DNA of 64,000 bases from a virus (taxonomy: Duplodnaviria; Caudoviricetes): IMG/VR virus record IMGVR_UViG_2706795618_000001, positions 1-64,000 of that record; one strand, given 5' to 3'. Every line of letters starts with the position of its first letter. The stretch's first letter is position 1. Position numbers and translations under genes: made by a program. Shown piece after piece: positions 28,078 through 31,109 of the stretch. The notes below the pieces were generated by a model. That model was not told the DNA's origin and ran no database searches. It saw nothing but the letters and a program-made list of their open reading frames with translations.

Positions 28078-28352
28078 TGACGCCGCTGCGGCCGGGCGAC
28101 CGGCTGTGGATCGGCCTGTTGGCCTACGTGGTGGGGGCCAACGTGTGGGCCACAACGCACAACACCGAGATGCTGAGCGAGGTCTGCGACCGCCAGCTGA
28201 AGGTCCATCGCTGGCTGACCGAGGTGGTGCTGGCCGCTCTCTACTGCCACCTCTCCAACCGAGTGCCCGACCGGTACGACCCGATTCACTGGCTGTTCGT
28301 CGGGGTCAAGGCGACGGCAACTCGACTGATGCGTAAGGAGATTGATACGTGA
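28074..28352 (+). CDS. Small membrane-associated protein before lysis genes
   Basis: ATGA/GTGA overlaps; WIGLLAYVV, EMLSE, HLSN..P..YDPIH. Confidence 0.7.
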   Translation: MMTPLRPGDRLWIGLLAYVVGANVWATTHNTEMLSEVCDRQLKVHRWLTEVVLAALYCHLSNRVPDRYDPIHWLFVGVKATATRLMRKEIDT

Positions 28353-29002
28353 GCGCTGTGGATGTGCTGTCCCAGGCGATGCTGGGGTCGGTGAGCCGGG
28401 AGCGGTACGCCCAGCTGCTACCCGCGTTGTCGGAATGCCTGGTGCGCTGTGGATGCACCACGGTGCCCCGGATCGCCATGTTCAACGCACAGGTCGGTCA
28501 CGAATCGGCCGGCCTGCTGTACATGTCGGAAATCTGGGGACCGACTGCCGCGCAATGCGGTTACGAGTGGCGTACCGACCTGGGCAACACCGTCGCGGGT
28601 GACGGCTACCGGTTCCGAGGCCGCGGCCCCCTGCAGGTGACGGGCCGGGGCCACTACACCAACCTGTCACGGTGGGCCTACAGCCAGGGCCTGGTGCCCA
28701 CGCCCACGTTCTTCGTGGACGATCCCGACCAGCTGGCCGGTGACCGATACGGCTTCATCGGCGTCACCTGGTACTGGACGGTGGAGCGGCCCCAGCTCAA
28801 CGCATTGGCCGACGCGCGCGACATCGTGGGCGCTACCCGCGCGGTCAACGGCGGGACCAACGGGCTGGAGGACGGCCCGTGGGGTCCGGGTCGCCGTACC
28901 CGCTGGAACCGCAACCTCGCCATGGGATCGGCGCTGCTTTCGCTACTGGAGCAACAGGATTGGCAACCCGTCCTGGACTACCTGCAAGGGAGGACGCTGT
29001 GA
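28349..29002 (+). CDS. Endolysin catalytic unit 1: GH19 glycoside hydrolase, standalone
   Basis: FNAQVGHES, DGYRFRGRGPLQVTGR, TRAVNGGTNGLED; no cell-wall-binding domain; ends QDWQPVLDYLQGRTL. Confidence 0.9.
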   Translation: MSAVDVLSQAMLGSVSRERYAQLLPALSECLVRCGCTTVPRIAMFNAQVGHESAGLLYMSEIWGPTAAQCGYEWRTDLGNTVAGDGYRFRGRGPLQVTGRGHYTNLSRWAYSQGLVPTPTFFVDDPDQLAGDRYGFIGVTWYWTVERPQLNALADARDIVGATRAVNGGTNGLEDGPWGPGRRTRWNRNLAMGSALLSLLEQQDWQPVLDYLQGRTL

Positions 29003-29529
29003 TCACCCGACGTAACGCCGACTTCTGGTGGAGCATCGCGTGGCCCCGAGACCGCAAGCGCTACGGGTACGGCGGGCCGTGGGATCAGTTCGACGTGAAC
29101 GTCTCCACCGACTGCTCCGGGCTGGTGTCGAACTGCCTGGAGGCGTTGGTGCGCGGCCCCGACGGGTTCGACTGGGACCGCGAGCCTTACAGCACCGAAT
29201 CGTGGCGCGTCGTGGACTACGGCCAGATAGGGCCGTTCGGCACCATCTGCGTCCGTCGGCCCCAAGACATCCCGGCCGACGCCGCGGTGGCCATCGGCTG
29301 CGTCCACGGGGCCGGTGCTGGCCCCAACAGCCACATGGCGTGCACAGTGTTCGACCCGATGTACGGACCCATCAACGTCGAGTCGTCCGGTACCTACGGT
29401 CAGCGGATCGGTGGCCCCGCAAGGGGTTACAACGACCCGATGTTCAAGGACTGGCACTACCTGCCCGGCCCCATCGAGGGCCAGGACTGGCAGCCGGTGC
29501 TCGACTATCTGACCGGTCGCACCATCTAA
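28999..29529 (+). CDS. Endolysin catalytic unit 2: NlpC/P60-like peptidase, standalone
   Basis: YGYGG, TDCSGLV, GPNSHMACT, NVESSG; GTGA overlap; ends QDWQPVLDYLTGRTI. Confidence 0.8.
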   Translation: MITRRNADFWWSIAWPRDRKRYGYGGPWDQFDVNVSTDCSGLVSNCLEALVRGPDGFDWDREPYSTESWRVVDYGQIGPFGTICVRRPQDIPADAAVAIGCVHGAGAGPNSHMACTVFDPMYGPINVESSGTYGQRIGGPARGYNDPMFKDWHYLPGPIEGQDWQPVLDYLTGRTI

Positions 29530-29565
29530 TACCCAATCCACCAAATCCCAAGAAGGAGAACAGAA

Positions 29566-30009
29566 ATGGCATCACCTGACGACGTGCAGAACTACCTCCG
29601 CGGCCAGGGCTGGTCACGCTGGCTGTATGAGGGCAGCAACGACGTGCTGGAGAAGTACAAGCGCGCCGTGGGCGACGTGCGCGAGCTGGTCGGCGAGCTG
29701 GCATGGAACCTGCTGCGCCATCACGACCAGTACGACATCGGCCGCCCCGGGGCACCACAGCCCGGCGACGTGCAGACCAAGCGGACCTACGGCCTGTTCG
29801 ACAGCGTGAAGCGCACGGTGTTCGAGCTGACGCTGTGGCTGCCCCAGGTCGGCCGGAAGGAGTTGCTGGCCAAGCGGTCAGGCAAGGAGACGGTGCTGGG
29901 TCACGCCGTTGCCGCGGCGTCGGCCGCCAGCCTGGCGCTGGAAGTGGCGCTCAAGGTGGCCGACAAGGTGGGGGCCGACCTGTCGGACATCGAGGGTCTG
30001 GACCGCTGA
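29566..30009 (+). CDS. Non-catalytic lysis protein resembling LysA C-terminal domains
   Basis: AAGGAG RBS; TLWLP...ETVLGHA resembles C-terminal regions of actinophage lysins; no catalytic motif seen. Confidence 0.55.
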   Translation: MASPDDVQNYLRGQGWSRWLYEGSNDVLEKYKRAVGDVRELVGELAWNLLRHHDQYDIGRPGAPQPGDVQTKRTYGLFDSVKRTVFELTLWLPQVGRKELLAKRSGKETVLGHAVAAASAASLALEVALKVADKVGADLSDIEGLDR

Positions 30010-30011
30010 CG

Positions 30012-31109
30012 GTGGCCACCTGGGACTCCATCCTCGACTACCTGCGCGGCGACCCCTGCAAGGTGGGTTACTTCGGGGTTCCCGGCACGTGGTCACCGTG
30101 GGATGCGGGGTATCAGGCCGACGTTGGGCGGCTGATCAACTCGGCCTGGTTCTACTGGCAGGGCGTCGGCTACGTCGCCGCGTTCGGCCCGGTCAACGGC
30201 CCCATCACCAACCCCTCCTACGCCGAGTCGGTGCAGGAGGGTGTGGACGAGACGGTGCGGCTGATCCTGGCGCGCCCTGGCCCCATCGTGCTCGGCGGGT
30301 ATTCCCAAGGGGCCGAGGTGGTGTACTGGGTGGCCCGGGAGTTCCTGACCGGCGGCCGGCTGGCTCACCGCCGCGGCGATCTGCTGTTGATCGTCACGTT
30401 CGGCAACCCCTGCCGCGCCAAGGGGCACGGGGTCAACCAGGCCACCGCCCACGGGTGGGGCATCTCCCGCAAGCCACCGCTGACGGAGTTGCTGCCCATC
30501 TGGCTGGACTACGCACTGCCCGGCGACATGTACTGCTGCGCAGACGATGACACCTACCTGGCCATTGGGTACGCCGCGTTGACCAAACTGCAGCTGCACG
30601 ACCCGTGGCAGCTGGTCCAGGCGATGCTGGCGCTGATCCAGTCCGATGAGTTCGCCGACGCGCTGGCCGAACTGCTCGACCCCCTGTTCCCCGGGCTGGC
30701 CACCACCCTGGGGGAGCTGACCGGAATGGACGGCGCGGCACTGCTGGCCAACCGCAAGCCGGTCGGCGGGGGCGTGCTGGGCGGGCTGATGTCGGGCCAG
30801 CTGCTGACCACCACCCCGGCAGGCGGCAACCTGCTGGGTGGGCTGATCGGCGCGGGGACCGGCGTGCTGGGTGGGCTGCTCGACGGGGTGATCCCCGGCG
30901 GGTTGCCTCCGATTGTCGGCGGCCTGCTCGGTGGGGGATCGGGCCCGGGCGGCACCCCCACCGGTATGTACAAGCTGGGCAAGACGTTTGCCGCACTGCT
31001 GAATTTCGCCACTACCAACGATCACGGTCACTACCACGACACCCCGGCGTTTGCCGGAACCAACGCCGTTGCCCACGCCGTCGGCGAGGTCAATCGGCTT
31101 GCTGCCTGA
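30012..31109 (+). CDS. lysB: Lysin B (cutinase-like alpha/beta hydrolase)
   Basis: GVPGTW, GYSQGA nucleophile elbow, TFGNPCR, GDMY, late His (DHGHY); begins MATWDSILDYLRG. Confidence 0.9.
   Translation: MATWDSILDYLRGDPCKVGYFGVPGTWSPWDAGYQADVGRLINSAWFYWQGVGYVAAFGPVNGPITNPSYAESVQEGVDETVRLILARPGPIVLGGYSQGAEVVYWVAREFLTGGRLAHRRGDLLLIVTFGNPCRAKGHGVNQATAHGWGISRKPPLTELLPIWLDYALPGDMYCCADDDTYLAIGYAALTKLQLHDPWQLVQAMLALIQSDEFADALAELLDPLFPGLATTLGELTGMDGAALLANRKPVGGGVLGGLMSGQLLTTTPAGGNLLGGLIGAGTGVLGGLLDGVIPGGLPPIVGGLLGGGSGPGGTPTGMYKLGKTFAALLNFATTNDHGHYHDTPAFAGTNAVAHAVGEVNRLAA

Follow-up and report, generated by a model that had tools for sequence, protein, structure and literature searches.

How do the phage lysins LysA and LysB reach their substrates, and how do they act together? 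This open problem is touched by a lysis cassette on a 64,000-nucleotide stretch of DNA from a virus of the Caudoviricetes. The stretch as a whole, which we call the window, covers positions 1-64000 of a 77,832-base virus record (IMG/VR IMGVR_UViG_2706795618_000001; G000). In its cassette LysA is split into a stand-alone GH19 enzyme and a stand-alone peptidase, followed by a noncatalytic protein of 147 amino acids (aa) and by LysB. Each of the three enzymes carries at one of its ends a similar short helix, here called the tag. We consider it probable, though well short of certain, that the tags serve to attach the enzymes to an oligomeric noncatalytic adaptor, which would replace binding domains of their own and would hold them at the wall after holin release.

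The split cassette and its tags

Over the cassette, identity with Mycobacterium phage Cracklewink amounts to 98.7%, the coordinates being the same. Cracklewink gp32-35 are annotated as lysin A glycosyl hydrolase, lysin A protease, hypothetical protein and lysin B, and their coordinates match those of the window. The initial annotation had described the cassette as split in this manner, with a LysB devoid of an N-terminal binding domain, and the open reading frames (ORFs) are as it claimed. The relevant features are the following.

28349-29002, + strand: stand-alone GH19 lysin, 217 aa, orthologue of Cracklewink gp32, without a binding domain of its own
28952-28999, + strand: C-terminal tag of the GH19 lysin, register W4, V7, L11, G13, then three residues
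28999-29529, + strand: stand-alone cysteine-peptidase lysin, 176 aa, GTG start, orthologue of gp33, core at residues 2-160
29479-29526, + strand: C-terminal tag of the peptidase, at the position of the internal helix before the C-terminal domain of the fused relative P0007
29553-29558, + strand: Shine-Dalgarno-like AAGGAG 5' of the ORF for the 147-aa protein
29566-30009, + strand: 147-aa noncatalytic helical protein, the proposed adaptor, orthologue of gp34, first helix at 29566-29604
30012-31109, + strand: LysB esterase, 365 aa, GTG start, no N-terminal binding domain, N-terminal tag at 30012-30050

The GH19 lysin matches PF00182 weakly (E = 0.017) and endolysin PHROGs with E values down to 4e-68. 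LysB is recognized by phrog_102 (E = 8e-61) and has the G-x-S-x-G motif in the form GYSQG. From its residue 21 it aligns to residue 7 of PDB 3HC7 (E = 2e-4), presumably the LysB of D29; it thus has a cutinase-like fold and lies within a lysis cassette. The Pfam scan of the window LysB gave no PG_binding_1 and the core begins at residue 21, so there is no N-terminal peptidoglycan-binding domain, a domain that is common but not universal in LysB. A long low-complexity stretch rich in Gly and Leu (30700-30960) lies ahead of the C-terminal end of this protein. The peptidase matches phrog_6707 (E = 2e-60) and its core aligns to PDB 9HYR (E = 5.5e-9); we infer the class N4/NlpC-P60-like, for which Pfam gave no supporting match. 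Lysins of class N4 are described as RipA-like in PMC3314691.

All three tags lie outside the catalytic cores, as seen for the peptidase from the alignment to 9HYR and for LysB from that to 3HC7, and they share a 13-residue helix register with W at position 4, V or I at position 7, L at position 11 and G at position 13. The tags of GH19 and peptidase are identical in 13 of 15 residues; 9 of the 13 corresponding codons differ synonymously, and 30 of 45 nucleotides match. Counted according to Nei and Gojobori, there are 10.0 differences on 10.7 synonymous sites (pS = 0.94) and 5.0 differences on 34.3 nonsynonymous sites (pN = 0.15). The duplicated LysA tag is conserved as protein and not as DNA: its synonymous sites are saturated, and there is selection on the peptide, as had been supposed from the codons alone. 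The saturation speaks against the pair being a mere DNA repeat. The last codons of the GH19 tag include a Shine-Dalgarno-like GGGAGG, which precedes the overlapping start of the peptidase gene.

The initial annotation had further proposed a consensus W-x-x-[VI]-L-D-Y-L-x-G for all four proteins. It describes GH19, peptidase and LysB but does not extend to the 147-aa protein, whose first helix carries P at position 4, where the tags have W, and agrees with the consensus only at V7, Y10, L11 and G13. When all six frames of the 64 kb are read, W..[VI]LDYL.G is encountered three times, every time within the cassette. The pattern [VI]..YL.G occurs five times in the 64 kb, and four of these occurrences are in the cassette.

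The 147-residue protein and its fused relatives

For the 147-aa protein no Pfam family scored above cut-off, and neither Pfam nor PHROG gave a match to a named chaperone. With a view to a possible relation to the C-terminal motifs C1 and C2 of mycobacteriophage LysA (Payne and Hatfull), we note weak matches to the tail of the Tsukamurella TIN endolysins (E = 0.1-0.7; phrog_6985, E = 6e-4), which opens with a common helix ending in Q-L-x-G (see below). An exhaustive search with the protein as query returned 15 matches at E <= 1e-3. These comprise the query, two repeat artefacts (P0011 and P0012, removed before counting) and 12 relatives, seven of them short (90-139 aa, some possibly fragments) and five fused behind other domains. 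In the fused forms P0002, P0005 and P0007 the order is enzyme, tag-like helix, Met and domain, and P0007 carries the same peptidase as the window. No tag was seen in the fused forms P0013 and P0014 (DUF4185). Shine-Dalgarno-like runs were present ahead of the internal Met in all four loci examined (L003, Tonitrus, TIN4, L016). Because of this fused order and of the Shine-Dalgarno-like runs at the internal Met, the 147-aa protein is, as judged by its relatives, a freed lysin C-terminal domain that exists both free and fused.

The ORFs of the peptidase and the 147-aa protein share one reading frame and are separated by a single stop and a 36-nucleotide spacer of 12 open codons (29527-29565), so that the open frame of the latter extends over 159 aa (147 + 12). 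The stop is TAA in the window and TAG in Cracklewink. This arrangement fits the split of a fused gene like that of P0007 or an occasional read-through, though two genes would share a frame by chance with a probability of 1 in 3.

A word-index search returned the query alone among proteins of near length and nothing among longer ones, and two scans of genome contigs and two viral scans gave no matches. The ESM Atlas held no usable feature match but only generic helical bundles. The comparison of profile A1 with the PDB returned designed helical repeats only, and no PlyC chain at E <= 1.

Tags, partner genes and neighbouring genes

In the IMG/VR locus L003 the tag of LysA stands before the domain, while the LysB of this locus contains, in a loop close to its start, a second tag that agrees with the first in 7 of 10 residues. 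The tag had been thought to sit always at a terminus. This is so in the genome of the window; in the relatives the tag is also internal, namely before the Met of the fused forms and in this LysB loop. The Rhodococcus phage Tonitrus has an M23 enzyme that is fused to the domain, flanked by an amidase and a DUF4185 enzyme, each with a tag at its C-terminal end. The amidase of TIN4 likewise ends in a tag-like helix. We compared the seven tags of the window, L003 and Tonitrus with the BLOSUM62 matrix: scores are 31-53 for the five pairs from one and the same genome and 17-32 for the 16 pairs from different genomes, the two ranges just overlapping. With regard to amphipathicity, eight tags fall between the 68th and the 100th percentile within their own proteins. 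Only LysB appears to be tagged in the cassettes of Cjw1, Omega and L013.

DUF4185 enzymes were seen in two arrangements, with a terminal tag in Tonitrus gp52 (L004:4365-5501) and fused to a domain of the 147-aa type in P0014. We take DUF4185 to be an endo-arabinanase, that is, a probable arabinan-cutting enzyme.

The common tail of actinophage LysA includes a helix that ends in Q-L-x-G and is often hydrophobic at positions 4 and 7 (12 matches listed from 11 loci). This helix shares the register of the tag, and the domain of TIN4 opens with it. We regard the first helix of this common lysin C-terminal motif as the probable origin of the tag.

Split lysA genes are also known from Gordonia phages. 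Separate adjacent lysin genes are reported for 7 of 16 reference Gordonia phages and their contribution is called unknown (PMC9671378); in the accessible part of that paper neither a shared peptide nor a complex is mentioned, and "PlyC" has zero occurrences. In all four true pairs (L034:1869-3523, L035:1830-3481, L033:1669-3301, L037:1810-3298) we find that the tail of the first enzyme resembles the C-terminal domain of its partner above all 30 shuffles (pair scores of 58, 39, 30 and 43 against shuffle maxima of 29, 31, 26 and 28). The resemblance differs in extent, as the tail is a single copy of the first helix in StarStruck and NadineRae and a longer copy in Brylie and Trax. The Gordonia arrangement differs from that of the window in that the tail of the first enzyme is similar to a portion, or to the whole, of the C-terminal domain in the partner, and in that the four pairs have no free third subunit. 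These similarities are hinting that the Gordonia split lysins might reassemble. Such lysin tails may be assembly modules, with the tag as their smallest form. EdmundFerry gp36 (L040:809-1513) is not one of the four pairs. It scored at shuffle level (26 vs. a maximum of 27), and despite its annotation as a lysin A glycosyl hydrolase it has the look of a minor tail protein, possibly a misannotation.

A second family of partner genes came from seven IMG/VR loci that were retrieved with the peptidase or LysB as query. A similar first helix is found on a small gene or on a domain with an internal start in four of them (L010, L012, L013, L016); there is no such partner in L014 and L017, and L011 showed no LysB to judge among its listed ORFs. 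The partner in L013 belongs to phrog_2424, which is matched by 192 phage records (duplicates included). The partner group of L010 is homologous to the phrog_2424 family (probability 95%), and the L010 partner itself had no match among GenBank phages. In four phages a phrog_2424 gene is located directly 5' of lysB.

L018:3501-3839: phrog_2424 gene of Cjw1
L019:3486-3866: phrog_2424 gene of Omega
L020:3486-3866: phrog_2424 gene of Gaia
L021:2274-2645: phrog_2424 gene of WXIN

Each of the four LysBs begins with an extra helix in the same register, and in Cjw1 this helix nearly copies the first helix of the partner itself. Some details of these loci should be mentioned. The phrog_2424 gene is annotated as holin in one record (Redno2), and Phrappuccino gp33, which has no PHROG match, was counted as a partner by eye. 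The partner ORF of L012 (L012:4688-5212) has a hydrophobic N-terminal segment, possibly a membrane anchor, its start codon being uncertain. HNH-endonuclease genes lie, by eye, between partner and lysB in L013 (L013:5209-5703) and, as annotated, between lysA and partner in Omega (L019:2844-3473).

A search for joint occurrence of the motif and the 147-aa family across actinophage lysis cassettes had been suggested as a check. With the 147-aa and phrog_2424 families pooled, the extra segment of LysB goes along with the partner gene. In 10 of 10 measured partner lineages LysB has either a leader of 20-28 residues (5-8 if bare) or a loop of 43-47 residues (26-32 if bare). The 10 control LysBs have an N-terminal domain of 80-99 residues (seven) or a bare start of seven residues (three), and their loops measure 26-30 residues. 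Ignoring kinship, the difference between 10/10 and 0/10 gives a Fisher p of 1e-5, and 10/11 vs. 0/10, with TIN4 counted as a miss, a p of 3e-5. For this count Gaia and WXIN were merged with Omega, whereas L011, NS-I and Tonitrus (no LysB in the 8.3 kb covered) were left out; the LysBs of Typha and Lucky10, by eye with neither tag nor partner, stand outside the 10 controls. Among 10 GenBank cassettes that were chosen from LysB matches before reading, two have both partner and segment and eight have neither. The proposal of a docking tag on several hydrolases with a noncatalytic partner thereby gains comparative support, from this co-occurrence as well as from the within-genome likeness of the tags.

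PG_binding_1 was found in none of nine LysBs from partner loci and in three of eight scanned LysBs with a long N-terminus, once below cut-off; the remaining long N-termini presumably carry a binding domain as well. In the relative Typha the flanking tail and holin genes are shared (29% coverage), and both lysins retain domains of the binding type: LysA is fused and contains PG_binding_1, and LysB has a long N-terminal domain. Typha has no partner gene and no tags.

Three further genes belong to or adjoin the cassette of the window.

28074-28352, + strand: small DUF7427 gene directly 5' of the GH19 lysin
31123-31452, + strand: holin (PF23809, E = 1e-12), for which the Cracklewink annotation begins at 31099
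31449-31997, + strand: DUF2746 protein (PF10874, E = 3e-11), last of the cassette

Since a gene similar to the DUF7427 gene also precedes the fused lysA of Typha, this gene is not specific to the tag system. The DUF2746 protein, 3' of the holin, has a hydrophobic N-terminal part and weak matches to coiled-coil-type Pfam families. It is a possible counterpart of LysZ, a lysis protein according to PMC13123898. Right after the cassette a G+C-rich inverted repeat was noticed by eye (32019-32050), possibly a terminator.

How the tags might act

We suggest the following mode of action. The cassette would encode a noncovalent, multi-enzyme lysin, in which the 147-aa protein would form a helical oligomer. 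The hydrophobic face of the tag (W4-V/I7-L11) would dock onto this adaptor or join its N-terminal helix bundle. The adaptor would stand in for the lost C-terminal and peptidoglycan-binding domains. After holin release it would keep the three enzymes, which cut glycans, peptides and mycolyl esters, in place at the wall. They would either all sit on the same oligomer or have one adaptor copy each. A wider version, which we put forward as a conjecture and regard as somewhat doubtful, is a general plug-and-socket principle in actinobacteriophages. Here, a movable 13-residue helix, at either end or in a loop, would address glycosidases, peptidases, amidases, LysB and DUF4185 enzymes to one oligomeric adaptor, and a single particle would cut both the wall and the anchor of the outer membrane in one place. 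The adaptors would belong to two or more families, the tag codes would be specific to each genome, and Cjw1 and Omega would be included.

Several observations weigh against docking. The monomer model of the 147-aa protein is helical with a long last helix, but of mediocre confidence (pLDDT 66, pTM 0.41). A fold search with this model gave no clear match, the best being Onyinye gp46 (E = 0.045), the product of a small gene between lysA and lysB. The hydrophobic moment of the two LysA tags is unremarkable (68th and 74th percentile). By eye, the LysB-like gene of TIN4 has no tag, and the bare LysBs of L5, MA5 and L014 have neither tag nor binding domain, so LysB is not always in need of an anchor. 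The similarity of a tag to the first helix of its own partner has a permutation p of 0.008 over 10 lineages, which rises to 0.068 without the window and to 0.43 without the window and Cjw1. As the similarity rests on these two, we discarded the idea that the tag always copies the first helix of its partner. The amidase tails of Tonitrus and TIN4 show no match to their partner genes above shuffles.

The count of LysB segments calls for similar caution. Its lineages are phylogenetically nonindependent, and the segments of Onyinye, L010, L016 and Phrappuccino were assigned by length and eye. The sequence pattern of the tag, which was composed after many tags were known, is present in only 5 of 10 partner LysB segments, where shuffling predicts 0.23, and in 0 of 10 controls; with 21 matches in six frames of the window, it says little unless its position is considered. 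That the 147-aa and phrog_2424 families can be pooled as one partner type is inferred. With hhalign they align over residues 1-13 only (probability 6%), and the 147-aa family and the L010 group likewise over residues 1-13 only. The PHROG search with the 147-aa protein gave no phrog_2424 match, and full-length homology to that family was not found. A single adaptor family was therefore rejected, as only 13 residues align.

Among other explanations, the strongest, though in our view unlikely, is that the tag does bind the 147-aa protein, but that this protein is an inhibitor or a chaperone for export and not a wall-bound scaffold; it would stabilize the enzymes, keep them inactive or deliver them across the membrane. 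The co-occurrence data fit this explanation equally well. A precedent is Ms6 Gp1, also a small noncatalytic protein of a lysis cassette, which binds a terminal lysin segment, namely the first 60 residues of one LysA, which it helps to export (PMC6116114). In the accessible part of that source Gp1 is not described as a detached lysin domain, a difference from the protein in the window. The hydrophobic N-terminal segment of the L012 partner, given its uncertain start, would also suit a chaperone, and wall binding by the C1/C2 motifs of mycobacteriophages is itself called a speculation in PMC3314691. What speaks for a scaffold is that the domain fills the C-terminal binding-domain slot of fused lysins and that the tags are found where peptidoglycan-binding domains are absent. 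Omega gp49 and Gaia gp31, which by their appearance may be Gp1-like, both coexist with the partner gene.

Improbable, in our estimation, is an action of the tag without the 147-aa protein, be it as an amphipathic helix that binds the membrane or the mycolate layers or as a means to bundle the enzymes together. Such an action would leave unexplained that the LysB extension tracks the partner gene (10/11 vs. 0/10) and that the tag seems confined to LysB in Cjw1, Omega and L013, even though the tags are amphipathic in the above-mentioned range and, in L003 and Tonitrus, are more alike among themselves than they are to the partner's first helix.

Very improbable is that the tags are functionless relics, that is, a linker left by the split of a fused peptidase-domain gene and recombined onto gene ends: the peptidase tag does stand at the exact place of the internal helix of P0007, still in frame with the 147-aa ORF across one stop, and the ribosome-binding site in the GH19 tag constrains its DNA, but the residues were kept while the synonymous sites became saturated, tags occur at LysB N-termini and, with a sequence matched to the genome (L003), within a loop of LysB, and none of the 10 controls has one. 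The helix is indeed internal in the fused lysins P0002, P0005 and P0007. That it is an ordinary linker remnant, which the initial annotation had considered, does not follow, because copies sit at the LysB N-terminus, in a LysB loop and at the C-termini of unrelated enzymes.

Docking onto an adaptor would have parallels in two known classes of endolysins. In PlyC of the streptococcal phage C1 (PlyCA and eight PlyCB) docking takes place between a helical domain and the N-termini of a noncatalytic octamer (PMC10604209). As in the window, catalytic and noncatalytic subunits are encoded by separate genes. However, PlyCA unites both catalytic domains in one chain and has a three-helix docking domain of ~60 residues, whereas the window encodes three enzymes, including an esterase, with one 13-residue helix each. 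There is no sequence homology to the PlyCA docking domain or to PlyCB (profile against PDB, E <= 1; Pfam), and the assembly of PlyC is proven while that in the window is a prediction. In the two-polypeptide endolysins a separately synthesized C-terminal domain forms multimers with the enzyme (PMC9430671), examples being Lys170 and LysIME-EF1 (1:3), CTP1L/CD27L (2:2) and LysP7951 (1:5). The fused relatives in L003, Tonitrus, TIN4 and L016 are similar in that their domain starts at an internal Met preceded by a Shine-Dalgarno-like run. The difference is that in these endolysins one gene yields both products and the enzyme holds a full copy of the domain, whereas in the window the domain is a separate gene behind a stop and the enzymes keep only a short helix, which is found also on enzymes of other genes. 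Given the lack of PlyC homology and the stop between peptidase and domain, the cassette is, by its gene arrangement, a member of neither class, while it would work like both. In cellulosomes several enzyme types share one transferable tag for a noncatalytic scaffold, the cohesin-dockerin system. This is an analogy only, since there is no Pfam match to dockerin or cohesin and a 13-residue helix stands against a calcium-binding domain.

The arrangement of tag and adaptor would be a variant of the multi-subunit kind of endolysin. We found no description of the tag or the partner gene in the literature searched, which consisted mostly of the main texts of open journals; in PMC3314691 no short conserved sequences were seen between LysA domains. 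If the tags dock, a testable function would be available for the gene without a name that precedes lysB in 192 phage records (duplicates included). Also, LysBs without a binding domain such as that of WXIN would then have been assayed without their partner; the accessible part of the WXIN LysB paper contains no occurrence of "helix", "upstream" or "lysis cassette". Docking would moreover make available a very small tag for loading several enzymes on one carrier. Finally, should the plug-and-socket principle hold, it would be the first physical complex of LysA and LysB.

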